Of a DNA stretch of 54,227 nt, positions 34,056 to 48,093 are shown piece by piece. A program made the translations under genes and the position numbers. Position 1 is the first letter of the stretch. Each line of letters starts with the position of its first letter. This stretch comes from Chlamydiia bacterium (GTDB lineage Bacteria; Chlamydiota; Chlamydiia; Chlamydiales; Rhabdochlamydiaceae), in NCBI GenBank assembly GCA_963804085.1, contig CAWDOQ010000008.1, forward strand, positions 1-54,227, read 5' to 3'. The notes beneath the pieces are model-generated. The model made no database searches, was not told the origin of the DNA, and worked only from the letters and a program-made list of their open reading frames with translations.

Positions 34056-34277
34056 ATGAAAGAGCAGCTGACAAACGAACGCCTAAAAGGTCTTTTTAAG
34101 AGCAATTTCGAGCTCGCTGCCCATGCAATCCGCTTGGGAAGATACTATATTCGATCTGGACATGAGATGCATGTCGACGAGGTGCTAGAAGAGATCCGCA
34201 AGCACCCCAGTGTAAATTATGTAGACGAGCTACAAGAGATCGACGCACAAGAAGACAAGAATGCAGAGAACGAGTAA
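34056..34277 (+). CDS. rpoZ: Probable RNA polymerase omega subunit (divergent chlamydial type)
   Basis: LTNERL...FKSNFEL motif; position between gmk and metG matches the chlamydial omega gene. Confidence 0.55.
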   Translation: MKEQLTNERLKGLFKSNFELAAHAIRLGRYYIRSGHEMHVDEVLEEIRKHPSVNYVDELQEIDAQEDKNAENE

Positions 34278-36300
34278 AAAAGTACTCATCACTTCAGCTC
34301 TTCCGTATGCCAATGGTCCGCTGCATTTTGGCCATATTGCGGGTGCCTACCTCCCTGCAGATTGCTTTGCGCGTTTCATGCGGCTTGATGGCGCAGATGT
34401 TCTTTATATCTGTGGCTCAGATGAGCATGGCGTCGCAATCACTCTGAGTGCGGAGCAGGCAAAGCGTACGCCTAAAGAGCATGTCGATCTCTTTCACGAG
34501 GTAAATCGTAAGTTTTTCGAAAAATTGCAGATCTCGTTCGACCATTTTTCGCGCACAACTTGGCCTGGCCATGTCCCTACAACGCAGCAGTTTTTTAAAG
34601 ACCTCAAAGAAAATGGATATATCGAAGAGAAGATTACCCAGCAGCTCTACTCGGAAGAGGACAAGAGGTTTTTAGCTGACCGCTATGTCGTGGGCATCTG
34701 TCCTAAATGTGGATTTACTGAGGCAAGAGGGGATGAGTGCCAAAGGTGCGGAGCGAGTTATGAGGCGACCGATTTAAAGGAGCCGCGCTCTAAAATCACC
34801 GGCAGCAAACTCATTTTAAAGCCGACGCTCCACTGGTTTTTACGTTTCGATATGTTCAAGGATAAGCTTGCCAAGTGGCTCGAGACAAAAGCGTGGAAGA
34901 GCAATGTTCTCAACTTTGCCAAAACCTATGTCGACGAGTTAAGAGAGCGAGCCATCACGCGCGATGGCGACTGGGGCATTCCGGTTCCGCTTGCAGAGGC
35001 CAAAGGCAAGATCTTCTATGTCTGGTTTGATGCGCCGATTGGCTATATATCCGCTACAAAAGAGTGGGCGGAAAAGATTGGAAAACCCGATGCTTGGAAA
35101 GAGTATTGGCTAGATACCGATACGCGCTATGTTCAGTTCATCGGCAAAGACAACATTCCCTTTCACGCTGTATTTTTTCCTGCGATGGTCATGGGGCAAA
35201 ATCAGCCCTACAAGCTTGTCGACGATCTTCCCGCCAACGAGTTTTACAATTTAGAGGGAAGACAGTTTAGCAAATCTGAAGGCTGGACGATCGATCTGGA
35301 AACCTTTTTTCAAAAATTCACAGTCGATCAGATCCGCTATACAATCGCAGCCAATGCTCCAGAGACGCAAGATGCGGAGTTTACCTGGAAAGATTTTCAA
35401 ATGCGCTGCAATGCAGAGCTGCTCGGAAAATATGGCAATTTAGCAAATCGTGTGCTTGTATTTGCTGCCACGCATTGTAAAGGCATTGTCCCGCACCATG
35501 CAAAAAAAGAGGCAGTAATAAAAGAAGCGGAAGAGATCGCAGCGAGAATCAAAGAGGCTTTTAGCACTTTTCATCTGCGTAAAGCTAGCCAGCTGATCAT
35601 GGAACTTGCACACATCGGCAACGTCTATTTCGATGCGAAAAAGCCGTGGCAGATGGCCAAAGATCCCGCAATGCACGCCGAGATGGAAAATGTCATCTAT
35701 AACTGCTTAGAGTGCTTAAAGATTCTTGCGATCGTGTCGTTTCCCATCATACCTGATACAGCTCGGCACCTCTGGAAGCTGCTTGGCCAAAATGAGCCGA
35801 TCATAAGCTGGGAAGAGCAGATTAAGAAACCCCTTAAAGCAGGGCAAGCCCTGCCTCCGCCTGTCCACCTCTTCGCCAAAGTGGAAGATGAGGTAATAGA
35901 AAAAGAGATAGAAAAGTTAAAAGGATTAAAACCTATGGAAACACCAGAAGTCTCTACACCACCTGCTCCCTTGAAGGAGCCGATCACGATCGACGATGTG
36001 CGCAAGCTAGATTTGCGCGTCGGACAAATTCTTGAGGCCGTTAGGATCCCGAAGAGCAAAAAGCTGCTCAAACTCACTGTTGATCTCGGCTTTGAAAAAA
36101 GGAGTGTCGTAGCCGGCATTGGCGATAAGCTTGAAGATATCAATACGCTTCTTAATCAGAAGGTTGTAATCGTCGCCAACCTCAAGCCCGCTCTTCTCAT
36201 GGGCGTAGAAAGCCAGGGAATGCTCCTCGCTGCCGATACAACGCTCGGCATAGAGCTGCCGAACTTCACTAAGGCCATTCCTGGCACTCCGGTTACCTGA
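34261..36300 (+). CDS. metG: Methionine--tRNA ligase with C-terminal tRNA-binding domain
   Basis: TSALPYANGPLHFGH, YVWFDAPIGY, GKDNIPFH, QFSKS, VANLKP. Confidence 0.97.
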   Translation: MQRTSKKVLITSALPYANGPLHFGHIAGAYLPADCFARFMRLDGADVLYICGSDEHGVAITLSAEQAKRTPKEHVDLFHEVNRKFFEKLQISFDHFSRTTWPGHVPTTQQFFKDLKENGYIEEKITQQLYSEEDKRFLADRYVVGICPKCGFTEARGDECQRCGASYEATDLKEPRSKITGSKLILKPTLHWFLRFDMFKDKLAKWLETKAWKSNVLNFAKTYVDELRERAITRDGDWGIPVPLAEAKGKIFYVWFDAPIGYISATKEWAEKIGKPDAWKEYWLDTDTRYVQFIGKDNIPFHAVFFPAMVMGQNQPYKLVDDLPANEFYNLEGRQFSKSEGWTIDLETFFQKFTVDQIRYTIAANAPETQDAEFTWKDFQMRCNAELLGKYGNLANRVLVFAATHCKGIVPHHAKKEAVIKEAEEIAARIKEAFSTFHLRKASQLIMELAHIGNVYFDAKKPWQMAKDPAMHAEMENVIYNCLECLKILAIVSFPIIPDTARHLWKLLGQNEPIISWEEQIKKPLKAGQALPPPVHLFAKVEDEVIEKEIEKLKGLKPMETPEVSTPPAPLKEPITIDDVRKLDLRVGQILEAVRIPKSKKLLKLTVDLGFEKRSVVAGIGDKLEDINTLLNQKVVIVANLKPALLMGVESQGMLLAADTTLGIELPNFTKAIPGTPVT

Positions 36301-36363
36301 CTTTTCTGCAAGGAAATGCGGAAAAGTCTTGACTTTTCTGCAATCCGCTGCAAAATAGTCAAG
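36298..36363. promoter_or_regulatory. Twin related hairpins between metG and the AAA gene
   Basis: GACTTTTCTGCA-aggaaa-TGCGGAAAAGTC, then TTGACTTTTCTGCA-atccgc-TGCAAAATAGTCAA; the second contains a TTGACT -35-like hexamer. Confidence 0.5.
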
Positions 36364-36364
36364 T

Positions 36365-37486
36365 ATGGAAAGGTATCAAAAGAAGGCGATTATAGCGGAT
36401 CTTAAAAAAAAGATGGTTTTTCTGGCTGGCCCTAGGCAAGCAGGGAAAACCACTTTAGCAAAAAAGATCGCGAGCGAATTTAAATCTTCTATCTATCTCA
36501 CCTATGACCATTTAGAGGATCGTAGGATCATTTTAGACGAGGGATGGCTTCCCTCTGTTGAATTGATCATTCTTGATGAGATCCATAAGATGCCGAAGTG
36601 GAAAAACTATCTCAAAGGGGTCTACGATACTAAATTATCGCATCAAAAAATTCTCGTGACGGGAAGCGCTCGTCTAGAGGTTTTTAATAAGGTGGGGGAT
36701 TCACTAGCAGGGCGTTATTTCTTGCATAGGTTGCTCCCGCTCTCTTGTGCGGAATGCGATAAGATCCACCAGAAATACACACTGGATCGGTTTTTAGAAA
36801 GAAGCGGATTTCCTGAACCATTTCTTGCAAAAACTCAAAGAGATGCCGACAGATGGCGCCTTCAATATGTCGATAGCTTACTTCGCATCGATGTCCTAGA
36901 TTTTGAGAATATTCAAAATTTGAATGCGATTCGGTTAGTTTTTGATATGCTTCGAGAGCGCGTGGGCTCGCCGATCTCCTACAGCTCTATTGCGCAAGAT
37001 GCTGCTATCTCTCCGAATACTGTTAAAAAATATGTCCAGATTCTCGAAGCGCTTTACATTGTTTTTCGCATTACTCCCTTTTCTCGAAATATTGCACGTA
37101 GCATTTTAAAAGAGCCAAAAATTTACTTTTTTGATGTGGGACTTGTTAAAGGCGATAAGGGAGTTAAGTTTGAAAATTTTGTCGCTGCTAGTTTGCTCAA
37201 GCATGTATTTGCAAAAGTTGACTATAAAGCGGAAGATTATACATTGAACTATCTCCACACCAAAGAAAAGCATGAAGTGGATTTTGCACTTGTTCGAAAC
37301 AAGCAGATCGAAAAAATGATCGAAGTCAAACATGCCGACCACGCCATCAATCCTGGGTTGCACTACTTTCGCGAAAAATACCACTTGCCTGCTGTTCAAG
37401 TCGTAAAAGAGATAAAACGCGAGTCAGTCCACAAAGGAATAGAAGTAGTATCGGCACACAACTTTCTTAAAGAGCTTTTTTTGTGA
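36365..37486 (+). CDS. AAA+ ATPase (AAA_14 + DUF4143 type)
   Basis: GPRQAGKTT, ILDEIHK, VTGSA, SLAGR, PKIYFFDVG, FENFV, EVDF...IEVK. Confidence 0.9.
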   Translation: MERYQKKAIIADLKKKMVFLAGPRQAGKTTLAKKIASEFKSSIYLTYDHLEDRRIILDEGWLPSVELIILDEIHKMPKWKNYLKGVYDTKLSHQKILVTGSARLEVFNKVGDSLAGRYFLHRLLPLSCAECDKIHQKYTLDRFLERSGFPEPFLAKTQRDADRWRLQYVDSLLRIDVLDFENIQNLNAIRLVFDMLRERVGSPISYSSIAQDAAISPNTVKKYVQILEALYIVFRITPFSRNIARSILKEPKIYFFDVGLVKGDKGVKFENFVAASLLKHVFAKVDYKAEDYTLNYLHTKEKHEVDFALVRNKQIEKMIEVKHADHAINPGLHYFREKYHLPAVQVVKEIKRESVHKGIEVVSAHNFLKELFL

Positions 37487-37558
37487 AAAGAGTTTTGACA
37501 AAAGATCAATTTTTAATATAGTCGGTTCCTGCCTTTTAAACTGGGAGGCGAAAAAAAG

Positions 37559-39805
37559 ATGCCTGGAGTTCCGACGCTTGACGATCTAGCAAAGCATGTG
37601 CGTGGGGAGTCCCATTCTCCAAAAAAGCCAGGGTTTTTTAAGAAGGGAAAAAGGCTGCTTTTTTTCTGTTTCAGTTTTTTGCTCTTGTTTTGCTCTTTTT
37701 TCATATTCCATGGAAAGATAACCCATTTTTTTTCTGCCGAACCTCTTGTCTACATAAAGCCGATGCACCCTGATTTTATTGGGCGTTTGAGCTATCTAAA
37801 ACGGCTAAAGAAACTCCTCGAAAGCAGCTCCGAAAAGGTCCCTATTGCAGTCCTATGGGGAGCTGCAGGGGTAGGCAAAAGCGAGATTGCGATAACTTTT
37901 GCTAATCAGAATTTAAAAAATTTCACGGTGACCTACTGGATCGACTCTGCAACGGAAGAGCTCTACCGTGCAAGCTACTACCATCTCGCACAGCAGCTCG
38001 GCATCCCATTTGACGAAAAGGAGTCGACTCCTGAAATGGTGCGCAAAGTGCACCACCATTTGGAAACTGAAACACGGGATCAGCCTTGGCTTCTCATCTT
38101 TGATAACGCAGAAAAGGTCCCCGAACTTCCTTTAAGAGGGAGAGGCGCTATTATTGTCACTGTGCGCAATCAAATACCTTGGCACTCGTTTCCTTGTTTA
38201 GAGGTTACATCGTTCTCTGAAGAGGAGGCAATTGCACTCTTTGATAAGATCGTAAAGAAGATCGATAGCCGCAACAAGATCGCGCTGATTCGCGAACTCG
38301 ATTGCTTTCCGCTCGCTTTGAACCTTGCATTCCACTACGTGGCAGAGACACCCGGAATGACTGAGGAGGAGTATTTAAATCTGCTCGCTCAAAATAGAGT
38401 CGATCTGATTGAAAATATGCCGCTCGATGCGCGCTATCCCACCCGTCTTTTGGCATCTTGGAAAATCATCGCAAATCAGCTGCAAGAAAAACACCCGGAA
38501 GCACTGGATTGGCTCCATTTTTGCACCTACCTTGCTCCTGATGGTATTCCTCTTTCTTGGTTAGAAGAGAGACTCGGCCAACTTAACTCTAAAGATGCAT
38601 TTTCGATGAAAATGCGTATGAATGAAGTGCTCCGCGTGATCGTCAATCAGGGCCTCATGCGTTATGATAAAAATAAGAGGGTCTTTTCCATCCACAGGTT
38701 GAAGCAAGAGGTGTTTAAACGCGATCCGCATTTTGATCCCAAGATAAAAAATGCAGTATTTGATCTCTTAGAGAAGACTGGGCGGACTCTGAATGTCGAT
38801 CAGTTAGAGGATTGGGAAAAGCTTTTTGCATGGGAACCCCACGCTCTTGCTGCGCTCCAGATGGAGGGCTTGCCTCCTTTGCAAGAGGCGGAGATTCGCG
38901 CTGTCTTGGGAAGATGGGCGAAAAATTTGGGGAATTATGCGCCTGCACAAGAGCACTTTGAAAAAGCACTAGCTATTCGCAGAGAGTATCTGCCTCCTGT
39001 TCATGAGGACACAGCCCGCACGCTTAATAATTTGGGGAGCCTCTGGTTTCACTTGGGGAAGTATCAGGAAGCGCTTCCTATTCACGCTGAGGCGTTAGAG
39101 ATGCGTCTTCAGCTCTACCAACGCAAACCGCATAAATATATCGCGAGGTCTCTTAACCACATGGGCACCGTTTGGCAAAAGCTTTCCGATTTTGATATGG
39201 CGATCGCTTTCCATCAGAAAGCTTTAGAAATGGGTAAAAGCTTAGGAAGCCAAGAAAAAGAGGTTGGGCATGCTTTGAGTTATCTCGGTAATATCTGGTC
39301 ACATTTGAAGAAGTATGAAATAGCGCTTAATTACCACACCGAAGCGTATCAGATGCAAAAAGAGATCAATAAGCAGGAAAACGGGCAAAATCACCCAGAT
39401 GTGGCTCTCTGTCTCAATGATTTAGGAAATGATTGGAGGGAGCTAGGCGATTTTGCCAAGGCGGAGCAGTACCATGTTGAGGCATGGAAGATTCTAAAGG
39501 AGCTTTATAGAAATAGGCCCCATCCCCAGATAGCATTGACTCTGCACTACTTGGGTACAATGCACGAAGCGCAGAAAGAGTATGTGCGCGCTAGGGAAGA
39601 ATATAAAGAAGCGTTTGAGATGCAAAAAAAGATTTATCTTCTCGATGCTCCTCATCCCAATCTTGTGAAATCCCTGAGCAGTTTAGTCGTGATTTGCAGG
39701 AAGTTAAAAGAGACGTCTGAAGCGCATAAGTACTATCAGATATTGAAACAAATTTTAGGAGAGAGCCATCCATCCGTGATCGGTTTAAACATAGACAAAA
39801 AGTAG
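37559..39805 (+). CDS. Membrane-anchored STAND/NB-ARC-like NTPase with TPR repeats (NLR-like)
   Basis: TM helix LLFFCFSFLLLFCSFFIF; FIGR, GAAGVGKS, WLLIFDNA, FPLAL; ~42-aa kinesin-light-chain-type TPRs (HEDTARTLNNLG, HPDVALCLNDLG). Confidence 0.88.
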   Translation: MPGVPTLDDLAKHVRGESHSPKKPGFFKKGKRLLFFCFSFLLLFCSFFIFHGKITHFFSAEPLVYIKPMHPDFIGRLSYLKRLKKLLESSSEKVPIAVLWGAAGVGKSEIAITFANQNLKNFTVTYWIDSATEELYRASYYHLAQQLGIPFDEKESTPEMVRKVHHHLETETRDQPWLLIFDNAEKVPELPLRGRGAIIVTVRNQIPWHSFPCLEVTSFSEEEAIALFDKIVKKIDSRNKIALIRELDCFPLALNLAFHYVAETPGMTEEEYLNLLAQNRVDLIENMPLDARYPTRLLASWKIIANQLQEKHPEALDWLHFCTYLAPDGIPLSWLEERLGQLNSKDAFSMKMRMNEVLRVIVNQGLMRYDKNKRVFSIHRLKQEVFKRDPHFDPKIKNAVFDLLEKTGRTLNVDQLEDWEKLFAWEPHALAALQMEGLPPLQEAEIRAVLGRWAKNLGNYAPAQEHFEKALAIRREYLPPVHEDTARTLNNLGSLWFHLGKYQEALPIHAEALEMRLQLYQRKPHKYIARSLNHMGTVWQKLSDFDMAIAFHQKALEMGKSLGSQEKEVGHALSYLGNIWSHLKKYEIALNYHTEAYQMQKEINKQENGQNHPDVALCLNDLGNDWRELGDFAKAEQYHVEAWKILKELYRNRPHPQIALTLHYLGTMHEAQKEYVRAREEYKEAFEMQKKIYLLDAPHPNLVKSLSSLVVICRKLKETSEAHKYYQILKQILGESHPSVIGLNIDKK

Positions 39806-39861
39806 GGTAATCGAGGAAAATTCTTGTTTTCAAATAGCGATATTTAAACAAGGGGAGAAAT

Positions 39862-40251
39862 ATGGCAGCAAAAGTAGGATCAAACGAATCGAAAGAACAA
39901 GTAACGCATTTGGGTGTAGATGCGATTAAAATTGCATTAGGAAACAACAGCTTTAACCGTATTACAGTGATTGCTCAATCGGATCTCGGATTTCATCCAG
40001 AGAGCGTTTTGAAAGTTGCTTACTCAACTATCACTCCTCAAATCAGCCCAACGAGAATGGCAGCTTCCGAAGTGCGCGGGCCCGACTTTATTGCTGTGCG
40101 TTTTGCGCCTACCAATCAGCACGATTTGGATCATGCTAAGGTCTGGTTTGTTTTCAAAGACACTCTGATAAAAGCAGAAGTCACTGCCATTGTAAATTTG
40201 ATCGAAGGCAGCGCAATAACTATGGGCGGAGTCACCTATAAAAAGATTTAA
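39862..40251 (+). CDS. Hypothetical protein
   Basis: 129-aa ORF with GGGGAG RBS; no recognisable motif. Confidence 0.6.
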   Translation: MAAKVGSNESKEQVTHLGVDAIKIALGNNSFNRITVIAQSDLGFHPESVLKVAYSTITPQISPTRMAASEVRGPDFIAVRFAPTNQHDLDHAKVWFVFKDTLIKAEVTAIVNLIEGSAITMGGVTYKKI

Positions 40252-40274
40252 TAGTTGTCAAAATTAATCGTTTT

Positions 40275-40289
40275 GATCAAAATCAGATC
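40275..40289. promoter_or_regulatory. Putative operator box GATC-N7-GATC upstream of the XRE gene
   Basis: GATCAAAATCAGATC, overlapping a possible -10 (CAAAAT) 17 nt after TTGTCA (40255-40260). Confidence 0.45.
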
Positions 40290-40294
40290 GAATT

Positions 40295-40735
40295 ATGAAA
40301 AAAGAAGATGATCGACAAGTATATGCTAAGTTGAGAGATCTTAGGCGAGCGAGAGGCATCACTGTGAGCGAGCTTGCCAAAGAAGTGGGCGAAGACTCTC
40401 AAAAAGTGGGGCGCATCGAACGTGGAAAGCGCAGCCTGACTGTCGATTATCTTATGAAAGTTTCTAGAGCCTTTGGAACGCCTATTGAAAACCTCTTGGA
40501 GAAAAGTGAAGAGGAGAAAAAAGCTCAAGGTGCCGTTCATTCTGATATCCTCAACCAAGTGGTCATCATGGTTGAAGAGCTCTCGGCTTTTTTTCCTCAA
40601 GAGTTTAGTTCGCAGCACAAAGCGCGCATCATCTCTAAGATTTACGAGTCTGTTTTAAAGATTCCTGCAAAAGAGCATCTTCAGTTCTTGCATTTTTTTT
40701 CCGATTCTTTAAAACTGTTTTTAGAAAAAATCTAA
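40295..40735 (+). CDS. XRE-family helix-turn-helix transcriptional regulator
   Basis: LRDLRRARGITVSELAKEVG...VGRIERGKRSL...LMKVSRAFG. Confidence 0.92.
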   Translation: MKKEDDRQVYAKLRDLRRARGITVSELAKEVGEDSQKVGRIERGKRSLTVDYLMKVSRAFGTPIENLLEKSEEEKKAQGAVHSDILNQVVIMVEELSAFFPQEFSSQHKARIISKIYESVLKIPAKEHLQFLHFFSDSLKLFLEKI

Positions 40736-40757
40736 AAAGATCTGACTCAAGCAGTAT

Positions 40758-42074
40758 ATGCAGTTGAACAATGTTGTCATTAAACACTCTCTTCACGGCT
40801 ATGTACGCGCCTCTATAGCGATCGCAAATGGAGTGATCAGCAAAGTTGTAATCGAAGATGGTGCATCACCCAATTTTTCAAATGTTGAATTTTATGTGAC
40901 CCCAGGCTTTGTCAATAGCCACTTGCATCCCAACCAGCTCTTTGATCGCAGACTGCTCGACGAACTCAGCATTACTGAGCTTTTGCATAAGATGCATGGA
41001 AACTACAAAAAGACCGATGAAGACCGCTATGCACAAGCTCTCTTTGTGCTCATGGAAGCGTTAAAAAGCGGAGCTACATCCATTTACGCTGTTGCAAGCA
41101 ACCCTCTTCCTGTAGTGCGTGCATTTAAAGCTCTAGATGTCAAAGGTGCTGTGACCTGTTTTTATAACGATCAGTGGGAGGGGTATGGAGATCCTCCAAC
41201 GCTTGCGATACATGAGGCGATCGAGAAGCAGTTTTTGCAAGCTTTCTTAGAGCAAACAGATCGCATAAAGATTCATATTGGTTCTGCATCCGTGGAAAGT
41301 GCTTCTAATGGACTTCTTATCTTGCTGGATGCTCTTGCAAAGCGTCTGAATACCAAAGTGAATATCCACGTGAGTGAAGGGATAGAATCGGTGCAGTCGT
41401 GCCAGAGCGCGCGGGGCATGAGCCCCGTTCGTCTTTTGAGCGAGCTCAAGGTTTTAGCATCTCACTGGAATCTTATCCATGCAGTGAATGTCGATGAGGA
41501 GGAGATCGCGCTTATTGCAAAAGGAAAAGCAAATGTTATCCACTGTCCTGTCAGCAACGCCAAAACAGGGGTGGGAGTTGCCCCGATCAAAGCGCTTATG
41601 GATGCAAAAGTCACAATCGGCCTTGGCAGCGATGCTTGCAGCAACAACAATACGAATAACATTTTAAATGAAGCCTACTTTGCCTCTCTTTTGCATGGAG
41701 CGTTCCAGAGAAATGCGCAAGCAATCACCTTAGAGACTTTAGTCCAATGGTTGACGACTAGCGGCTATCATATTTTAGGAAGCAAACAAAAAGGTACAAT
41801 TGCAGTAGGCGAGCCCGCTGATCTTCTCCTCTGGTCTCTCTCCGAAGATGCTTTTGTACCGGTTCCTTTTGGTAATTTCACCTCTGCTCTAGTCTACAAT
41901 GCACCCGATATCAAACCACACACAGTGCTTATCGATGGCCGTGTCGTTGTGGAGAACTATCAGTGCAAGATCATTCAAGAAAAAGAGGTCCGAAAAGCTG
42001 CAAATGGATGCAGTGTAAAAGTTATCTCAGCAATAAAAGAAAATCCATGCAAAGAGAAGGCTGCAAAAAGTTAG
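40758..42074 (+). CDS. Amidohydrolase-superfamily nucleobase/nucleoside deaminase (MtaD/SsnA-like)
   Basis: PGFVNSHLH (HxH), IHVSE (HxxE), LIHAV, HCPVSN, GLGSD, GTIAVGEPADL. Confidence 0.88.
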   Translation: MQLNNVVIKHSLHGYVRASIAIANGVISKVVIEDGASPNFSNVEFYVTPGFVNSHLHPNQLFDRRLLDELSITELLHKMHGNYKKTDEDRYAQALFVLMEALKSGATSIYAVASNPLPVVRAFKALDVKGAVTCFYNDQWEGYGDPPTLAIHEAIEKQFLQAFLEQTDRIKIHIGSASVESASNGLLILLDALAKRLNTKVNIHVSEGIESVQSCQSARGMSPVRLLSELKVLASHWNLIHAVNVDEEEIALIAKGKANVIHCPVSNAKTGVGVAPIKALMDAKVTIGLGSDACSNNNTNNILNEAYFASLLHGAFQRNAQAITLETLVQWLTTSGYHILGSKQKGTIAVGEPADLLLWSLSEDAFVPVPFGNFTSALVYNAPDIKPHTVLIDGRVVVENYQCKIIQEKEVRKAANGCSVKVISAIKENPCKEKAAKS

Positions 42075-42604
42075 GGCTTTTGGGAGGAGCAGGTGTTGGT
42101 AAAGACACCTTTGTTCAGATCGTTCGTACGCATTTTTCTCATTTAAACATTCAGCTTATTCGTCTTGCTGATCCCTTGTACGCGGTACAAAAATATGTCT
42201 ATGAAGCGTGCGGTAAGGAAAAGGAGGAGCATATTCAAGATGGGGAGCTCCTCAATTTTTTAGGCAGCCACATGCGCAAAATTAATCCCGATGTCCTAAA
42301 AGAGCCGTTTGAAAGAGCCGTAAAGGAAATAGTCTCTTCCATGGATCTTGTCATCTGTAGCGATGTGCGTCCAAAAGATGTGGGGTTTGTAAGAGAGCAG
42401 GGATTTCATATCGTACACATCAGCACAGATCCCAAGATCGCACTCCAAAGACGTGAAAAAAGAGGAGATCTAACACTCGGTTGTTCTCTTCATTCTACAG
42501 AAATGGGGGTGGAGCGTTCTTTATTCGATACGGAGATCATTAACAATAACACGCTGGAAGAATTTGAAGAGGCTGTGTTAAAGTTTATTGGTAAAAAGCT
42601 ATGA
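42047..42604 (+). CDS. P-loop (deoxy)nucleoside monophosphate kinase-like protein
   Basis: GGAGVGKDT, RLADPLY, LLNFLGSHMR, VICSDVR, IINNNTLEEF: the pattern of phage-type dNMP/dephospho-CoA kinase-like proteins. Confidence 0.75.
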   Translation: MQREGCKKLGLLGGAGVGKDTFVQIVRTHFSHLNIQLIRLADPLYAVQKYVYEACGKEKEEHIQDGELLNFLGSHMRKINPDVLKEPFERAVKEIVSSMDLVICSDVRPKDVGFVREQGFHIVHISTDPKIALQRREKRGDLTLGCSLHSTEMGVERSLFDTEIINNNTLEEFEEAVLKFIGKKL

Positions 42605-43131
42605 TTTTAACAGGTGATGAGATTCACAAGCAGGTGGCTTTAAACCGCATCCACATCGTTCCCTTTTCTGAAAACAATTTAAACCCAAATAGCTACAACT
42701 TTCGTTTGCATCCAGATTTACTTGAGATTGCCGATTTTCCTATCGACCCAAAAAAACAAACAGAGTGTAGCAAGATAGAGCTTAGAGAAGAGGGCTACAC
42801 GCTTCTTCCGGGACATCTCTATTTGGGCAGCACTTTAGAGGAGCTTGGAAGCGACTTCTTTGTTCCGACTCTGATGGGTCGCTCTTCTCTCGGTAGGTTG
42901 GGCCTTTTTTTGCAAATCACCGCAGATCTTGGACAGATCGGTGCTAAGCACTGCTGGACGCTAGAACTTAAGGTGGTGCAGCCTCTCGTCGTTTATCCCT
43001 TCATGGAAATTGGACAGATCTCATTTTGGAAAGTGGAGGGCAATACTGCGTTTCATTATAATGGCAAGTATGCGTCTGATTTTTCAGCGCATCAGAGTGA
43101 AATTTATCAGGAGTTCGAAGAGATTTCATGA
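42601..43131 (+). CDS. dcd: dCTP deaminase-family protein, paralog 1 (trimeric dUTPase fold)
   Basis: MILTGDEI, NPNSYNFRL, GRSSLGRLGL, WTLEL, IGQISF, YNGKY; ATGA overlap with the kinase. Confidence 0.85.
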   Translation: MILTGDEIHKQVALNRIHIVPFSENNLNPNSYNFRLHPDLLEIADFPIDPKKQTECSKIELREEGYTLLPGHLYLGSTLEELGSDFFVPTLMGRSSLGRLGLFLQITADLGQIGAKHCWTLELKVVQPLVVYPFMEIGQISFWKVEGNTAFHYNGKYASDFSAHQSEIYQEFEEIS

Positions 43132-43676
43132 TACTTACAGGATCTAAAATTAAAGAGAAGGTGTATGCAAAAGAGATCATCATCGATCCCTTTACTCCCG
43201 ATCAGATCAATCCCAACTCCTACGATTTTCGTTTAGGCTCCACTCTGCTAGTCTACAAAGAAGATCTCCTCGATCCCAAAAAAGAAAATGAGACAGAGAC
43301 AATTCATATTCCGCAAGAGGGCTATGAGCTTTCACCTAACAAGCTTTATCTGGGACATACCGAAGAGGTGATGGGGAGCAATTTCTATGTTCCGATCATA
43401 CGCGGAAGGTCTTCGATCGGTAGATTAGGACTTTTCATACACATCACAGCAGATCTGATCGACATAGGATCTATCAACCAGTGGACGCTTCAGATGCACT
43501 GTGTGCAGCCCGTGATCATCTATCCCGGAATGCTCATCGGCCAAGTCACATTCTGGAGAGTCGAAGGTGCAATTATACCCTATAATGGCAAGTACCAAGG
43601 TAGCCGCGGCCCTATGGCCTCGCAAATCCATCTTGATATGCAAGAACTCACAGCTTCTCACTCGCTTTTTTCCTAA
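43128..43676 (+). CDS. dcd: dCTP deaminase-family protein, paralog 2
   Basis: MILTGSKI, NPNSYDFRL, GRSSIGRLGL, IHITADLIDIG, WTLQM, YNGKYQG; ATGA overlap with paralog 1. Confidence 0.85.
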   Translation: MILTGSKIKEKVYAKEIIIDPFTPDQINPNSYDFRLGSTLLVYKEDLLDPKKENETETIHIPQEGYELSPNKLYLGHTEEVMGSNFYVPIIRGRSSIGRLGLFIHITADLIDIGSINQWTLQMHCVQPVIIYPGMLIGQVTFWRVEGAIIPYNGKYQGSRGPMASQIHLDMQELTASHSLFS

Positions 43677-43702
43677 GAGAAATTTTCGTTTGTTCAGAAA
43701 GT

Positions 43703-43777
43703 AATCAAAAACAGATTGCGAAAAAAGATGCGCGCAAAATACAATCGATTTTTGATTTAAAAGATCAATTCTCGATC
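43703..43777 (+). promoter_or_regulatory. Putative promoter with three RATC-N7-GATY boxes
   Basis: AATCAAAAACAGATT (43703), AATCGATTTTTGATT (43743), GATCAATTCTCGATC (43763), around TTGCGA-18nt-TACAAT. Confidence 0.55.
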
Positions 43778-43802
43778 ATTCATTTTTGACAATGGAGGAA
43801 GT

Positions 43803-44906
43803 ATGAAACCTGTTATGATTCACAAACTTGCGCGGACACACTATTTTCCCTTTGAAGAAAAGGCTTATCCGATTTCACAGGTGCAGGAAGATGAGTCTGT
43901 GAGTTATCTCAATTTAAACATCAATAACCTGAGCCACTCCTCATATCGCTTGTACCCTCAATTAAAAAATGACCGCTTAGCGCGGAAGTATCTGCATGCA
44001 TTGTCGGTTCTATCACACGCTTCTTTAGAGCGCGTACCATTGGCTGAAGACAACCTCCTTTTTTCTCAAGGGTCTGCTGAGGCGATCGATTTAATCATCA
44101 GGGTATTTTGCGAGCCTGGAAAAGATGCAGTGATGATCACCTCTCCGACCTTTTCCTACTATGCTTACCGAGCTGCCTTGGAGAATGTCTCTGTAGTGGA
44201 TGTTCCTCTGGAAGGCCCAGATTTAAATGTTTTAAATGTTGGAGAGATTTTAAACCAACCTGCTAAAGTGCTTTTTCTTGCATCTCCCAATAACCCAGTT
44301 GGGACTCTGCTCGATCTCAAAGTTGTGGAGGAAATTGTTCAGCGGTTTCGAGGTATTGTTGTAATGGACGAAGCCTACATAGAATGGACGAGCCAGTCTA
44401 CATGTGCGGGATGGGTTTTAAAATATGATAACCTGATCATCCTGCGCACTTTTTCTAAAATGTGGGGACTTGCTGGGGTTCGTTGCGGGGTATCAATCGC
44501 AACAAAAAGTGCAATAGATACTCTCAGATTGGCTCAACCTATGTTTAGCTTTCCGGACTCCTCGGCTGAGATCGTCATGGATAAAATGAACGATGTCGAG
44601 AGACTCTTTGGCTATAAAATGCGAATGGATCGGTATCGAGTCGATTTTTTTGATTTTTTAATGAAACTTGAATTTGTAGAAAGGGTCTATCCGGGAGAGG
44701 CCAATTTTCTATTGGTTAAGTTCCGAGATGAAAAAAAAGTGCAGCTGCATCTTTTGCGCGAAAAAATTTTAGTCAGTAGTGCTGCGCATCAAGTCCCTAA
44801 CACGCTACGTATTTCCATCGGTTCTCGAGTTGAAATGGAACGCGTGAAAAACCAGCTTATGGAAATGAGCGTCAACGGACCGCTTAAGGATCGGATTTCT
44901 GCTTAA
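43803..44906 (+). CDS. PLP-dependent class I/II aminotransferase (HisC-like)
   Basis: GSAEAIDL, SPNNPVG, MDEAY, RTFSKMWGLAGVRCG; GGAGG RBS. Confidence 0.88.
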   Translation: MKPVMIHKLARTHYFPFEEKAYPISQVQEDESVSYLNLNINNLSHSSYRLYPQLKNDRLARKYLHALSVLSHASLERVPLAEDNLLFSQGSAEAIDLIIRVFCEPGKDAVMITSPTFSYYAYRAALENVSVVDVPLEGPDLNVLNVGEILNQPAKVLFLASPNNPVGTLLDLKVVEEIVQRFRGIVVMDEAYIEWTSQSTCAGWVLKYDNLIILRTFSKMWGLAGVRCGVSIATKSAIDTLRLAQPMFSFPDSSAEIVMDKMNDVERLFGYKMRMDRYRVDFFDFLMKLEFVERVYPGEANFLLVKFRDEKKVQLHLLREKILVSSAAHQVPNTLRISIGSRVEMERVKNQLMEMSVNGPLKDRISA

Positions 44907-44937
44907 GAGACTATTCACAAACTTTAAGCTTCCCCTT

Positions 44938-46092
44938 GTGTCATGGTTTTTGATCTGTGGGATTCTTTTAGTGCGGATGGCGCTCTTCATGAGCTACCCT
45001 TTTCTTGCGTTCCATCTACAGTCGTTAAGTTTCGATGCTTTGAGTATAGGAATTATTTTAGGGTGCCATTATTTTTTTGCAGGTGTTGCGGGAATCTTTG
45101 GGGGTGCTGCTGCAGATCGCTGGAATCCAAAATATGGCTTAGTGTTTGCTTTATTGATAGGGGCTCTCTCTTTTTTAGGGCTGAGCCAATCCAGGAGTTT
45201 TCTCTCTTTTCTTCTTTGGAACTGCTTGCTTGCGATTTCTTCCTCTACTTTCGAGCCCATTGCGAGTGTGCTCATCACCAGTCACCTTGCTCGTGAGTTT
45301 CGTGCATTTGCTTTTCGTTTGCGCTATTTAGCAATTAACATAGGAGCTGCAATAGGACCCCTAGTTGGTGCTCTATTCTTTGTAAAAGGACCGCACTTTT
45401 CATTTTGCGTAACGAGCATTCTTCTCGCGATATACGCTGGCCTATTTCTATTTTTAAGAGCAAAAAAAAGAGAGAGTTCAAATGCAGAGTCTGCACCCAG
45501 AAATATGCGCGAGATCCTAATTTGTATGGCAAAGCACAAATCATTTCTGCTTTTAATCGCTGCCAATCTCTTTGTCACGATGACCTATGGCCAGATTTTT
45601 TCAACACTACCGCAAATTTTGAGTGCAAAAATGGAAAATAGCAGACAGCTTTATTCGATTTTGCTCACCGTAAACCCCCTTACGGTCATTGCTGTAAGTG
45701 TTTTTTTAAGCCAATTTCTAAGCTTGCAAAATCCCAGAAGATTATTTAGTGGTGGAGCTCTTCTGCTGGCTATTTCTTTTTTAGGGTTTCATCTTTCAGT
45801 GATGAATGAGGTGAGTTACATATTTTTTATGGTTCTCTTTACCTTGGCAGAGATCACGCTCATTCCGACGACTGCCAAAGTTTTATTCGATTTAGCTCCT
45901 GAAAAATATAGAGGGGCGTATCTTGGTTCAGAAAGCACATCTTATTTTGGCTTTTTTATCGGTAATATCGTCGGGGGCTGGCTGCTTCAAACTGGACAGA
46001 GCGTTTTTCTCTTTTGTATCTTTTGCTCTTTTGCAGCCTTTTTCTTGTATCGCCTCTCTCTCTCAAGTCAAGAGAGAGAGGTTAAAATCTAG
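44938..46092 (+). CDS. MFS transporter
   Basis: About 12 hydrophobic helices, GGAAADRW motif A, NIGAAIGPLVG, APEKYRGAY. Confidence 0.9.
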   Translation: MSWFLICGILLVRMALFMSYPFLAFHLQSLSFDALSIGIILGCHYFFAGVAGIFGGAAADRWNPKYGLVFALLIGALSFLGLSQSRSFLSFLLWNCLLAISSSTFEPIASVLITSHLAREFRAFAFRLRYLAINIGAAIGPLVGALFFVKGPHFSFCVTSILLAIYAGLFLFLRAKKRESSNAESAPRNMREILICMAKHKSFLLLIAANLFVTMTYGQIFSTLPQILSAKMENSRQLYSILLTVNPLTVIAVSVFLSQFLSLQNPRRLFSGGALLLAISFLGFHLSVMNEVSYIFFMVLFTLAEITLIPTTAKVLFDLAPEKYRGAYLGSESTSYFGFFIGNIVGGWLLQTGQSVFLFCIFCSFAAFFLYRLSLSSQEREVKI

Positions 46093-46274
46093 AGCCAGTT
46101 ACAAAACTCCCCGCCTCAGAAAAATCGAAGATTTTGAGTCAGTTTGCCGGGGCTGCAAAGCAGCCCGAACCCCACCGCCGGGGACATACTCAGGAGAGTA
46201 GGGCCCGGCGGTGGGGCGGCAAAATGGCTCAAAAGGACGATTTTGCTGATGCGGGGAGTTTTGCAACTGACTCT
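46091..46274. mobile_element. MITE-like element (184 bp) with ~40-bp imperfect terminal inverted repeats
   Basis: AGAGCCAGTTACAAAACTCCCCGC.TCAG.AAAATCG versus the reverse complement of CGATTTTGCTGATGCGGGGAGTTTTGCAACTGACTCT; internal CCCACCGCCGGG...CCCGGCGGTGGG stem; CT on both flanks. Confidence 0.7.
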
Positions 46275-46282
46275 CTAGAAGC

Positions 46283-47068
46283 TCACTTCTTATAAGTCTC
46301 TAGAATTGTCAAAGGTACGTGTAAGATGTAAAGGTCATCTTTGCGCTCGACGTCCATAAACTCCTCGACTTTTTGTAAGCACTTTTCAGGAGTTATATGC
46401 GACATTCCGTGTAGTTTATACATAAAGAGGCCGAGCTCTTCTCGACTTGTGAAATTCCAATGATAATCCAAATCATGGAACTTGGGATCTGAAAACCCAA
46501 ATAAGTAGCAGAGCGAACGAGCAAATTCATGGGTCAAAAAAGCAACCTCATGTCCCGTGACAGAGTAGCGTGCGACCTCTGCATCGAAATAAGTTGCGAG
46601 TTTTGATCCTGAAAAAACATCACATAAAAGCATGCGCCCTTGCCCTTGCAGAAGACTATGGAAGTTTCTAAAGGCTTGGGATTTATTCATGCAATGATGG
46701 AAAGCTCCTAAGGACCAGATCGCATCAAAGCTTTCTGTTTCCTTCATTAGCGAGGGATCGGAAAGTAGAAAATCCGCACCTACTTCGATCATGCGCATAT
46801 TTGCACGCTTAAAAGTGCGGATGTTTTCTAGCTGGTCTGCAGAGGGGTCGGTTGCAACAAGTTCGCCTGTGCTTCCTAATAACTCTGCGATTGGACGAGA
46901 GTATAGCCCGCTTCCTGCGCCAATCTCTAAGATTTTTTCACCACGCTTAGGCTTTAAATAGCCGAGGTTTAGTTTCACCTCTTCTTCTCGCACAAGAGGA
47001 AATTCGTTTAATACCTCTTTGTAGAGCTGTGCTCTTTCGCCTACGAATTCTTTTGCTATGACTGCCAT
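46283..47068 (-). CDS. Class I SAM-dependent methyltransferase
   Basis: ILEIGAGSG, ATDPS, SFDAIWSLGAFHH, GRMLLCD; GAGGAG RBS. Confidence 0.9.
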   Translation of the reverse strand: MAVIAKEFVGERAQLYKEVLNEFPLVREEEVKLNLGYLKPKRGEKILEIGAGSGLYSRPIAELLGSTGELVATDPSADQLENIRTFKRANMRMIEVGADFLLSDPSLMKETESFDAIWSLGAFHHCMNKSQAFRNFHSLLQGQGRMLLCDVFSGSKLATYFDAEVARYSVTGHEVAFLTHEFARSLCYLFGFSDPKFHDLDYHWNFTSREELGLFMYKLHGMSHITPEKCLQKVEEFMDVERKDDLYILHVPLTILETYKK

Positions 47069-47089
47069 AAAATTCTCCTCAATGAAAGG

Positions 47090-47845
47090 TTAGGATTTTT
47101 TGTCTGTTTTGCTTTCTTCTTTTTTGCCTTCAATTTTGTCGAAGGTAAGAGTGAAGCTGATGCGCAATTTCTTCTCTTTTTTTTCTAAAGTGACGTTTTT
47201 TAAATCCAATTTTGTGATTTCCGACAGACTCTCAATATGAGTACCTCCACAAGGAATTGGGTGGTCTCCAATTTTGAGCTTTCGAATCCCGCCATCTTCC
47301 ACGAAAGATGAGGGAAGCTTCAATGTTTCATCCACAGTTTTTGCAAACGCTTCTTTCACCTGAGCTGGCGTCGGAAATTCGTCATTTTCGGCAACAAATT
47401 TCATAAATGCGTTATTGGGGTAGCATTGTCCGGAATCTCCTCTTAGCTTTGGAAAGCACTTCACGACGATGTAGTCCACCACATGCGCCGCAGTATGCCA
47501 TACTGAATTGAGATGCCGGTTTTGGCTGTCTACTGTAAGTTCAACGACATCGGCAAATTTAAACGATACGGGTGCTTTGAAGCAGTGCACTATATCGAAA
47601 TCATAACCCTTGCCGATCTTTTCTTTATGGACATAGTCAACTCCGATTCCATTGATAGTACCGATGTCGCTAAGCTGTCCTCCTCCTTGCGGATGGAAGA
47701 TCGTTTCCTTTAGCTTAATCCAGTAAAAAGTTGAGTCTCTAAGTAGAGATTTTCCAACCTCTGTTACCTGTGTTCGGTGTTTGAATAACAGTGGACGTGT
47801 AAGGTATAGGGGTCTTGTGAGTTGCTTAACTACAGGTGCAGCCAT
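47090..47845 (-). CDS. alaX: AlaX-type alanyl-tRNA trans-editing protein
   Basis: TIFHPQGGGQLSDIG, HTAAH, CGGTH; start at ATG 47845 after AAAGGAG. Confidence 0.85.
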   Translation of the reverse strand: MAAPVVKQLTRPLYLTRPLLFKHRTQVTEVGKSLLRDSTFYWIKLKETIFHPQGGGQLSDIGTINGIGVDYVHKEKIGKGYDFDIVHCFKAPVSFKFADVVELTVDSQNRHLNSVWHTAAHVVDYIVVKCFPKLRGDSGQCYPNNAFMKFVAENDEFPTPAQVKEAFAKTVDETLKLPSSFVEDGGIRKLKIGDHPIPCGGTHIESLSEITKLDLKNVTLEKKEKKLRISFTLTFDKIEGKKEESKTDKKS

Positions 47846-47916
47846 AAATGTCTCCTTTCTCTTGTAATTTGCTTTAAACACATCAGACATCCTATTTCTG
47901 ACAGATTATTTTTTAC

Positions 47917-47931
47917 AATCAAAAAATGATA
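47917..47931. promoter_or_regulatory. Putative ATC-N7-GAT operator box upstream of alaX
   Basis: AATCAAAAAATGATA, similar to the 43703 box AATCAAAAACAGATT. Confidence 0.4.
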
Positions 47932-48093
47932 TTTTTTTAATTTATCGAAAAACGCACAAGAAAACAGACTGAAAAAATCAAACTATGAGAAAAAACTAGA
48001 CGAGAAAATAGGGAAAAACCAGGGCATTGGTTATTTGCTTCTAACCCAGCTTTGGAGTAGTATCTATTTCTTTTATATTTGCGAATAGAAAAT

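Follow-up and report, generated by a model that had tools for sequence, protein, structure and literature searches.

A horizontally acquired nucleotide-kinase and split dCTP-deaminase cassette in a chlamydial genome, tentatively read as a nucleotide-conflict module

We analysed a stretch of 54,227 nucleotides (nt), hereafter the window, from a Chlamydiia bacterium of the Rhabdochlamydiaceae (GCA_963804085.1, contig CAWDOQ010000008.1, positions 1-54,227, forward strand; the host assembly, G000, is 91% complete). An initial annotation of positions 40295-47845, made from the letters and a list of open reading frames (ORFs) without database searches, had described nine genes, running from an XRE regulator to an AlaX-like protein, as a single cluster. 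ORF listing and family scans confirmed all nine genes in their places. The first five encode an XRE-family regulator, an amidohydrolase, a small nucleotide kinase and two proteins of the dCTP deaminase (DCD) fold, DCDa and DCDb. They form an operon (40295-43676) that is a real, horizontally acquired unit, and the kinase, DCDa and DCDb are its conserved heart. As initially noticed, stop and start codons overlap within it: the kinase/DCDa and DCDa/DCDb junctions each do so by 4 nt. The operon lies in an insertion. The distance between metG and recD2 is 15.5 kb in the window versus 0.4-5 kb in relatives (short spacing in G013, G018, G002, G003, G006, G009, G004 and G015, with a protein check in L048; G, C and L numbers denote genomes, contigs and loci), in agreement with the earlier proposal of an insertion between these two genes.

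The extent of the unit was delimited by comparing loci from other genomes. The kinase served as seed because it is the most distinctive of the proteins. Homologues of the kinase were collected (49 proteins), an alignment of 18 of them was used to fetch loci, and the resulting 60 loci (34 from species-representative genomes and 26 from metagenomes) were queried by tblastn with the window proteins. Two DCD genes were found within 5 kb of the kinase in 34 of the 34 kinase-seeded genome loci, which bears out the co-occurrence of the dcd-dcd-kinase core that the initial annotation had proposed to look for. Among the metagenome loci, the DCD pair accompanied the kinase wherever the locus was long enough to tell. 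The first DCD of L018 is spread over two reading frames, and an extra copy of the DCD pair lies upstream in L021. The trio occurs in Chlamydiota, Verrucomicrobiota, Actinomycetota, Nitrospirota and Chloroflexota.

The other members of the operon are less constant. The amidohydrolase joins the trio only in loci of the Planctomycetes-Verrucomicrobia-Chlamydiae (PVC) type: it was present within 4 kb of the kinase in all five PVC genome loci (in two of them inverted and 1.5-3 kb upstream), and upstream of it in 12 of the 13 PVC-type metagenome loci having upstream sequence, the exception being L058. An orthologue of the XRE regulator heads the cassette only in L004 (from the same genome as G308/L044) and in L054. 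As for the aminotransferase, MFS transporter, methyltransferase and AlaX-like genes of the window, tblastn placed them beside the cassette in 0 of the 34 genome loci and 0 of the 26 metagenome loci. A 126-nt gap, opposite strands and an element resembling a miniature inverted-repeat transposable element (MITE) separate the units. In the relative G011, moreover, homologues of the aminotransferase (51% identical) and of the methyltransferase (60%) converge on each other as they do in the window and are flanked by acrB-like and icd genes, with no cassette, MFS or AlaX gene (L047, G011:C31, 3134-5130). Thus, since the downstream four genes lack co-conservation and two of them stand alone in G011, the nine genes are a composite, and the single nine-gene cluster had to be rejected. 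The aminotransferase, the methyltransferase and the AlaX-like protein are unrelated neighbours in the same insertion hot spot; the same probably holds for the MFS gene.

The two DCD proteins carry complementary catalytic substitutions, which the initial annotation had missed, as it had the STAND NTPase genes flanking the cassette. Both have the trimeric dUTPase-superfamily fold (PF22769), as the initial annotation had recognised. Against the TIGR02274 cut-off of 92.8 bits, DCDb scores above (109.7) and DCDa below (68.1). The best solved matches are 2qxx for DCDa (6.6e-13) and 4xjc for DCDb (2e-19). The TLEL motif of solved dCTP deaminases aligns with TLEL in DCDa and with TLQM in DCDb, while their IDPG motif aligns with IDIG in DCDb and with GQIG in DCDa. 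In the numbering of the Mycobacterium tuberculosis enzyme, read from the alignment, the positions concerned are Glu129, which we take to be the deaminase base, and Asp119, presumably equivalent to the motif-3 Asp of dUTPases. The same division was seen in all 34 genome loci and in the window: gene 1 of the pair has WTLE[LI] together with Q, H or N at the Asp position, and gene 2 has T[LF]Q and TADLIDIG. Numbered as in the window proteins, Glu122 is invariant in 33 of 33 DCDa sequences, and DCDb keeps both Asp112 and Gln122 without exception (35 of 35 sequences). In metagenome loci, every DCDa-type stretch with the motif read WTLE and every DCDb-type stretch read T[LF]Q (WTLQM in L076). Both proteins keep the GRSSxGRLG motif and the Ala of the base pocket, and DCDb also keeps the C-terminal GKYQGxxGP found in the M. 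tuberculosis enzyme. The pocket Ala is Ala115 by our alignment, in agreement with the structural report in which this residue lines the uracil pocket (PMC5519681). Replacement of the motif-3 Asp by Asn is described in two reports as abolishing dUTPase activity with binding not lost (PMC4827122, PMC5519681).

In a maximum-likelihood tree, all DCDa sequences form one clade (support 100/99). The two paralogues taken together are separated from both the housekeeping DCD and a third type of DCD, and the same sub-groups recur within each of them, from which we conclude that the pair has been inherited and transferred together. Judged from these alignments and the tree, DCDa and DCDb are an ancient, always-adjacent paralogue pair that appears to have shared out the two catalytic residues of a bifunctional dCTP deaminase-dUTPase. 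Neither protein has the deaminase Glu and the motif-3 Asp in one chain; the pair holds both between them. In known enzymes of this fold and family, which are homotrimers, each chain carries both residues, and these enzymes do not travel with a dedicated kinase as DCDa and DCDb do. Its residues suggest that DCDa can deaminate. DCDb, despite its TIGR02274 score, is probably not a deaminase of the known kind because Gln replaces Glu in 35 of 35 orthologues; its dUTPase-type Asp and its C-terminal lid are retained. Co-folding of DCDa with DCDb gave a score of 0.34 versus 0.00 for the best control, with a contact agreement of at least 97% and a partner predicted local distance difference test (pLDDT) value of at least 86. 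Of 80 solved complexes, 58 reached the mark, as did 2 of 110 mismatches, but scores of 0.60 or less comprised 7 of the 80 together with both passing mismatches, and a low pass is wrong more often than it is right if the two partners were not likely to pair in the first place. The model thus lends weak support to a DCDa-DCDb contact, and the pass may merely echo the solved DCD homotrimers.

The kinase start that fits the orthologues is the ATG at 42047, which overlaps the amidohydrolase stop by 28 nt. A QDGxLLNFLG motif is invariant across the family. The predicted structure (pLDDT 87) has dephospho-CoA, nucleoside monophosphate and deoxynucleoside monophosphate (dNMP) kinases as its nearest folds, and both a profile search of PDB and a fold search returned generic P-loop kinases, none of which named a substrate. 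The family comprises 481 representatives at E<=1e-10 among 1.84 billion. Of the longer members, 13 were scanned, and some each were found fused to a cytidine/dCMP deaminase, a Nudix domain or a type-I nucleotide pyrophosphatase. The amidohydrolase carries the metal and catalytic residue set of COG0402-type enzymes: its HxH, HxxE, His and Asp positions all align with those of 4dyk, which with 4gbd is the nearest solved structure (about 1e-27). Its best NCBIfam match reaches 170.6 bits against a cut-off of 522 and every NCBIfam equivalog falls far under its cut-off, so that the equivalogs do not assign a substrate class. The gene is present in 2 of 31 genomes. A second copy (65% identical, C-terminally shortened) was observed at G000:C15:30361-31479 (L049 2299-3489), between GrpB/patatin-like and leucine-rich-repeat genes and with no kinase or DCD gene nearby. 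Another copy, in the relative G022, has an internal stop. The XRE regulator also matches the PADLOC HTH_VI and capH-like models.

The tandem DCD genes are not the only dcd copies of the genome. In answer to the question raised by the initial annotation, a third dcd of housekeeping type was found beside ruvB on another contig (C23:105951-106421). A canonical dut (PF00692) was not found in the 91%-complete host assembly, while 27 of 30 relatives have one. A Nudix gene (C2:324857-325309) lies beside a gene that neighbours dut in two relatives; the dut synteny of G013 and G009 is not kept in the host and one of the flanking genes is at a contig end. Given the completeness of the assembly, the unconserved synteny and the contig end, a loss of dut is not distinguishable from an assembly gap. 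The other four chlamydial carriers of the cassette have both a canonical dut and a housekeeping dcd; therefore, the module adds to the basic supply of dUMP and does not take its place. The cassette is an accessory and mobile element: 5 of 400 genomes from the phylum carry it and 0 of 90 from the family do, and the module is carried on plasmids in 10 PLSDB records.

Table 1. Genes and elements of the metG-recD2 insertion (window positions).
Feature	Position	Strand	Remarks
AAA14-DUF4143 gene	36365-37486		PADLOC candidate PDC-S01, 5.5e-59; adjoins the STAND gene upstream
STAND NTPase (NB-ARC/AAA_16 + DUF7779 + TPR), 748 aa	37559-39805	+	Pfam; ends 56 nt before the next gene; probable partner or sensor of the cassette
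129-aa protein	39862-40251	+	homologue beside the cassette in L004/L044
XRE-family helix-turn-helix regulator, 146 aa	40295-40735	+	HTH_3, 45.9 bits versus gathering score 23; first gene of the operon
Amidohydrolase-fold deaminase, COG0402-type (TRZ/ATZ/MtaD-like), 438 aa	40758-42074	+	Amidohydro_1, 1.4e-35
Small P-loop nucleotide kinase, phage dNMP-kinase-like, 185 aa	42047-42604	+	PHROG 139, 2.7e-20; Pfam DNMK, 2.3e-6
DCDa, dCTP-deaminase fold	42601-43131	+	PF22769, 5.5e-30; deaminase Glu kept (WTLEL), Gln (LGQIG) for Asp
DCDb, dCTP-deaminase fold	43128-43676	+	PF22769, 2.3e-40; Gln for Glu (WTLQM), motif-3 Asp kept (LIDIG)
HisC-like pyridoxal-phosphate aminotransferase	43803-44906	+	TIGR01141, 239 bits versus cut-off 276.6; neighbour, not part of the unit
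MFS transporter	44938-46092	+	MFS_1, 4.6e-41; neighbour, probably not part of the unit
MITE-like element, 184 bp	46091-46274		37-nt terminal inverted repeats, 89% complementary; between the MFS and methyltransferase stops
Class-I S-adenosylmethionine (SAM) methyltransferase	46283-47068	-	neighbour, not part of the unit
AlaX-like editing-domain protein	47090-47890	-	AlaXM, 5.1e-19, 68.9 bits versus cut-off 300; neighbour, not part of the unit
Caspase-STAND-TPR gene, disrupted	48106-51638	+	three frames; orthologue of the intact 1408-aa gene flanking the cassette in L004

Two STAND homologues exist in the whole genome, and both are in this island, on either side of the genes just described (Table 1). 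The downstream one is broken: by tblastn, residues 4-327, 591-1237 and 1197-1398 of its L004 orthologue were found in frames 1, 2 and 3, respectively, and residues 328-590 are missing. The association recurs elsewhere, with STAND homologues that are operonic with the cassette in L008 and L020. In L004 and L054 the 1408-aa caspase-STAND-TPR gene is divergent from the XRE gene; in L008 a STAND NB-ARC-TPR gene overlaps the start of the amidohydrolase; and L020 has a tightly packed STAND-HIT-kinase-DCDa-DCDb-DCD3 array.

The genome loci showed five architectures. The PVC type (5 loci) is made up of the amidohydrolase and the trio. In the second, found in Streptomyces, Lentzea and Amycolatopsis (9 of 34 loci, L009-L017), a protein of 660-880 aa precedes the trio. 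Its N-terminal 500 residues match HD-type dNTP triphosphohydrolases (2o6i 8e-23, SAMHD1 about 1e-8), but LLQDVGELPYQ is found where 2o6i has LLHDVGHGPYSH, a change of HD to QD. The C-terminal part is TIR-like with a score of 27.7 bits, the cut-off being 28; one example of the protein is encoded at L017 7911-9962. From these motifs the protein looks like an inactive dNTPase used as a sensor. In the third architecture (Nitrospirota and Chloroflexota, 3 loci) the trio is joined by a third DCD. The fourth (actinomycetes, 13 loci) comprises a SAM methyltransferase, the kinase, an APH-like kinase, DCDa, DCDb, a weakly HprK-like protein and a Nudix protein, the kinase being accompanied by a cytidine-deaminase domain in 10 of the 13. 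The fifth (4 loci and a Rhizobium etli plasmid) has the DCD pair, a methyltransferase and a kinase-deaminase. Outside the second type, a cytidine-deaminase domain lies directly downstream of the kinase in 14 of 17 actinomycete loci, in one reading frame with it where a gene was called.

We tentatively read the cassette as a nucleotide-conflict module that converts deoxycytidine nucleotides to dUMP, a reading whose probability we place a little short of even. In the scheme proposed, the kinase and the host nucleoside diphosphate kinase would push deoxycytidine monophosphates up to dCTP, DCDa would convert dCTP to dUTP, and DCDb, alone or in a mixed trimer with DCDa, would hydrolyse dUTP to dUMP. 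The additional deaminase, namely the amidohydrolase here and the fused cytidine deaminase in actinomycetes, would act at the nucleoside or monophosphate level. The net outcome would be a self-contained drain of deoxycytidine nucleotides with no release of dUTP. The XRE regulator would keep the operon off until induced, and the flanking STAND proteins, or the TIR-like ones elsewhere, suggest a conflict or antiviral use. Of the activities contemplated by the initial annotation, depletion of dNTPs therewith stays viable and is the one we prefer. The synthesis of a modified nucleoside found no support, no modifying enzyme being conserved with the PVC-type cassette.

A number of observations weigh against this reading. 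Because all loci were seeded with the kinase, the counts for the trio measure the share of kinase loci and not that of DCDa/DCDb pairs. The substrates of kinase, amidohydrolase, DCDa and DCDb are all inferred. The amidohydrolase is nearest to methylthioadenosine/adenosine-type and 8-oxoguanine-type deaminases (about 28% identity), not to cytosine deaminases. Routing dCMP through the triphosphate for deamination would be wasteful compared with a dCMP deaminase. The link with STAND proteins is based on five loci. None of the kinase, DCDa, DCDb, the amidohydrolase and the actinomycete kinase-cytidine deaminase fusion matched a PADLOC v2 model, and a match of the core enzymes to a known defence system was rejected on this account. 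Two peptide patterns retrieved no relative of the kinase from the viral contigs of IMG/VR. A phage origin of the cassette was rejected on that result together with the low identity (just 32-36%) of the phage homologues of DCDb, which occur in haloviruses and Bifidobacterium phages.

The remaining points against a conflict role come from transport and salvage genes near the cassette. NTT/TLC nucleotide transporter genes follow DCDb directly, on the same strand and with gaps of 45-79 nt, in L006/L056/L057 and in L055, and two NTT genes adjoin DCDb on the opposite strand in L052/L053; an NTT gene thus adjoins DCDb in three independent chlamydia-like lineages. Immediately upstream of the cassette, L005, L007 and L062 have MFS genes that are not orthologous to the one in the window. 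L005/L007 also encode a YjjG-like pyrimidine nucleotidase, and the neighbours in L004-L007 include, besides this nucleotidase, HIT, SurE and LOG genes and a nucleoside phosphorylase with pentose-phosphate genes. Such neighbours fit metabolism as well as, or better than, defence. The export step envisaged by the initial annotation is affected in two ways: its MFS gene is not co-conserved, but a link with transport is viable because other NTT or MFS genes stand beside the cassette in several other lineages.

These neighbours speak for the strongest of the alternatives. It holds that, in intracellular bacteria importing the nucleotides of their host, the cassette is a repressor-controlled accessory route with no role in conflict. 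The route would either balance the pools or produce uracil nucleotides (dUMP for ThyX) from cytosine (deoxy)nucleosides and nucleotides that have been imported or salvaged. The host has ThyX and at least three NTT genes; the dut gene that most relatives possess was not found in it; and the kinase fusions to Nudix and nucleotide pyrophosphatase domains point to pathway chemistry. Against it, the cassette replaces nothing in general, as the dut and dcd genes of the other carriers indicate, and a useful core pathway would be expected in far more than 5 of 400 genomes. The module is also found in free-living actinomycetes and on plasmids. STAND, caspase-STAND and SAMHD1-like/TIR-like partners are unexpected for salvage genes, and it is because of the STAND and SAMHD1-like/TIR-like partners that we favour a conflict role. 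We regard the metabolic explanation as unlikely, albeit a serious competitor.

Comparison with known systems bears on the conflict role and on a further alternative. The first of these systems is the defence dCTP deaminase, whose Vibrio homologue is called AvcD. In this enzyme a kinase domain and a zinc cytosine-deaminase domain occupy one chain, whereas the kinase of the window is a stand-alone protein of 185 aa. The initial annotation had set its genes apart from AvcD-type fusions, and rightly: the window has no kinase and zinc-deaminase fusion, since the dcd genes are of the trimeric-dUTPase fold and the kinase has no cytidine-deaminase domain, nor was a dCMP_cyt_deam domain found in any of the window genes scanned with Pfam. 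Tal et al. describe that the defence enzyme depletes dCTP, dCDP and dCMP, that dUMP accumulates by way of the host dUTPase, and that the kinase-like domain is essential (bioRxiv 10.1101/2021.04.26.441389). Defensive dGTPases are described there as HD enzymes (bioRxiv 10.1101/2021.04.26.441389). The likeness to our cassette lies in the proposed removal of deoxycytidine nucleotides with dUMP as the sink, and in the actinomycete relatives of the module, in which the same kinase family is fused to a cytidine deaminase, the domain architecture of the published defence enzyme. Unlike that enzyme, the cassette has a triphosphate deaminase of the unrelated trimeric-dUTPase fold, an extra deaminase of the amidohydrolase fold and a dUTPase-like protein of its own.

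A second set of relatives is found among T4-type phage enzymes. The best family match of the kinase is to phage dNMP kinases (PHROG 139), and the T4 gp1 dNMP kinase 1dek is a distant fold match (rank 17, TM 0.53). T4 gp56 is a dCTPase-dUTPase and T4 cd a dCMP deaminase, and the T4-type combination of kinase, dUTPase-fold pyrophosphatase and deaminase is reminiscent of the cassette. Unlike the T4-type set, the PVC-type cassette is accompanied by no base-modifying enzyme.

Kongming, the third system, consists of the deaminase KomA, the inactive HAM1-like sensor KomB and the SIR2 protein KomC. According to the published accounts, a deaminase, a dNMP kinase and the host nucleoside diphosphate kinase together give dITP (bioRxiv 10.1101/2024.12.20.629578, PMC13454610), which is read by a pyrophosphatase homologue with its catalytic Asp replaced (bioRxiv 10.1101/2024.12.20.629578). 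The chemistry of a deaminase and a dNMP kinase acting on deoxynucleotides, and the presence of a nucleotide-hydrolase homologue with a substituted catalytic residue, are common to Kongming and the cassette. By analogy, the cassette could be a generator of signals: deaminase, kinase and DCDa would make dUTP, or dITP through the amidohydrolase branch, as an alarm; DCDb would be an altered binder or degrader that sets the threshold; and STAND proteins or the inactive SAMHD1-like/TIR-like ones would read the signal. The intact HxH/HxxE/H/D set of the amidohydrolase, the dNMP-kinase-like protein, the substituted DCD paralogue and the actinomycete partner with its QD-for-HD dNTPase-like domain fused to a TIR-like domain all fit this idea. 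However, DCDb retains both the Asp and the lid that an active hydrolase should have, the similarity to TIR is borderline, and neither HAM1 nor SIR2 domains were found in the 18 window proteins scanned (34261-53928), nor was a NADase gene found by the Pfam scan of the window. The deaminases belong to other families than that of Kongming. The kinase is encoded by the bacterium and not by a phage and, because the system thus has its own kinase, the trigger logic of Kongming, which depends on a phage kinase, does not carry over. All considered, a signalling function has a small chance of being correct.

Plain redundancy fares worse. According to this explanation, the cassette provides an additional or substitute Dcd/Dut for making dTTP, with DCDb taking the place of a dut that was lost; the dUTPase-type residues of DCDb and the failure to find dut in the host would agree with it. 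As set out above, however, the loss cannot be shown in this assembly and the other carriers have dut, and redundancy would leave unexplained the conserved kinase, the extra deaminase, the repressor and the STAND neighbours, which makes it very unlikely. Finally, the making and export of a modified pyrimidine nucleoside by all nine genes from XRE to AlaX is scarcely credible: the shared insertion, the intactness of the genes, the transporter and tailoring-type enzymes nearby, a Nonomuraea plasmid with the module beside epimerase, oxidoreductase and glycosyltransferase genes, and the methyltransferases of another family that accompany the module in 16 of 17 actinomycete loci of the fourth and fifth types (not L024) speak in its favour, but the co-conserved tailoring and export genes that mark a nucleoside natural-product cluster were found in 0 of 34 and 0 of 26 loci.

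To return to the preferred nucleotide-conflict reading, the initial annotation had not recognised the gene set as a described pathway, and no characterised pathway or PADLOC system was found to match it. Full-text searches of the literature, supplementary tables not covered, yielded no description of a kinase with a tandem trimeric DCD module. The dCTP deaminase is not mentioned in Kaur et al. 2020 or in the 2026 Avs paper, as judged by term searches within them, and a term search of PMC10733785 returned no match. An unvalidated 'dUTPase' domain is among the predicted defence domains in section 8 of DefensePredictor. The enzymes and the type of defence are akin to known kinds, that is, dUTPase-superfamily enzymes and nucleotide-depletion defence; the cassette seems to be a hitherto undescribed means of converting or draining the cytosine building blocks of DNA, possibly in defence. 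Should DCDa and DCDb act in the way proposed, they would be, to our knowledge, the first natural example of a bifunctional dUTPase-superfamily enzyme whose dCTP-deaminase half and dUTPase half reside on separate subunits that are inherited together. The trio is widespread and mobile, and its repeated partners are either nucleotide transporters or proteins of immune type, namely STAND, caspase-STAND and SAMHD1-like/TIR-like ones. It may therefore provide nucleotide-depletion immunity by a second route, unrelated to the known one, or a new signal in the form of a deaminated nucleotide. Otherwise, it would be an accessory route of pyrimidine metabolism in nucleotide-parasitic bacteria.

There is a modest chance that the module is the core of a new immune family. 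A fuller version, which we consider quite unlikely, is that the kinase and the split DCD are the nucleotide-converting arm of such a family, with an output consisting of dCTP loss or a burst of a deaminated dNTP such as dUTP and coupled to STAND NTPases in the window or, in actinomycetes, to the inactive SAMHD1-like sensor fused to a TIR-like domain. In those chlamydia-like symbionts in which NTT nucleotide transporters are operonic with the cassette, the module may act on the nucleotide pool of the host cell, thereby shielding both the symbiont and its protist host from co-infecting viruses.

Some features of the insertion and its surroundings complete the description. A palindromic stretch of about 70 nt follows metG (36294-36364), and both of its strands match in several relatives. 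The AAA14-DUF4143 gene beyond it is found at other sites in the relatives G003, G008, G009, G012, G015, G016 and G028. The 129-aa protein encoded just before the operon had no Pfam, NCBIfam, PADLOC or PHROG match; language-model features liken it to phage head-decoration proteins (0.93), a weak lead, as recognition was below the mark of the tool. A scan for promoters and terminators found sites no more numerous than in shuffled sequences. HTAAH and CGGTH motifs are visible in the translation of the AlaX-like protein. The MITE-like element has at least eight further copies (78-91% identity) in the same genome, on contigs C7, C10, C16, C17 and C19, and copies are also present in the relatives G004, G010, G012 and G018. 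In the metagenome contig L058 (1-501), kinase-DCD genes and the 5′ end of a recD2 homologue (61% identity) point away from each other, with no amidohydrolase between them.

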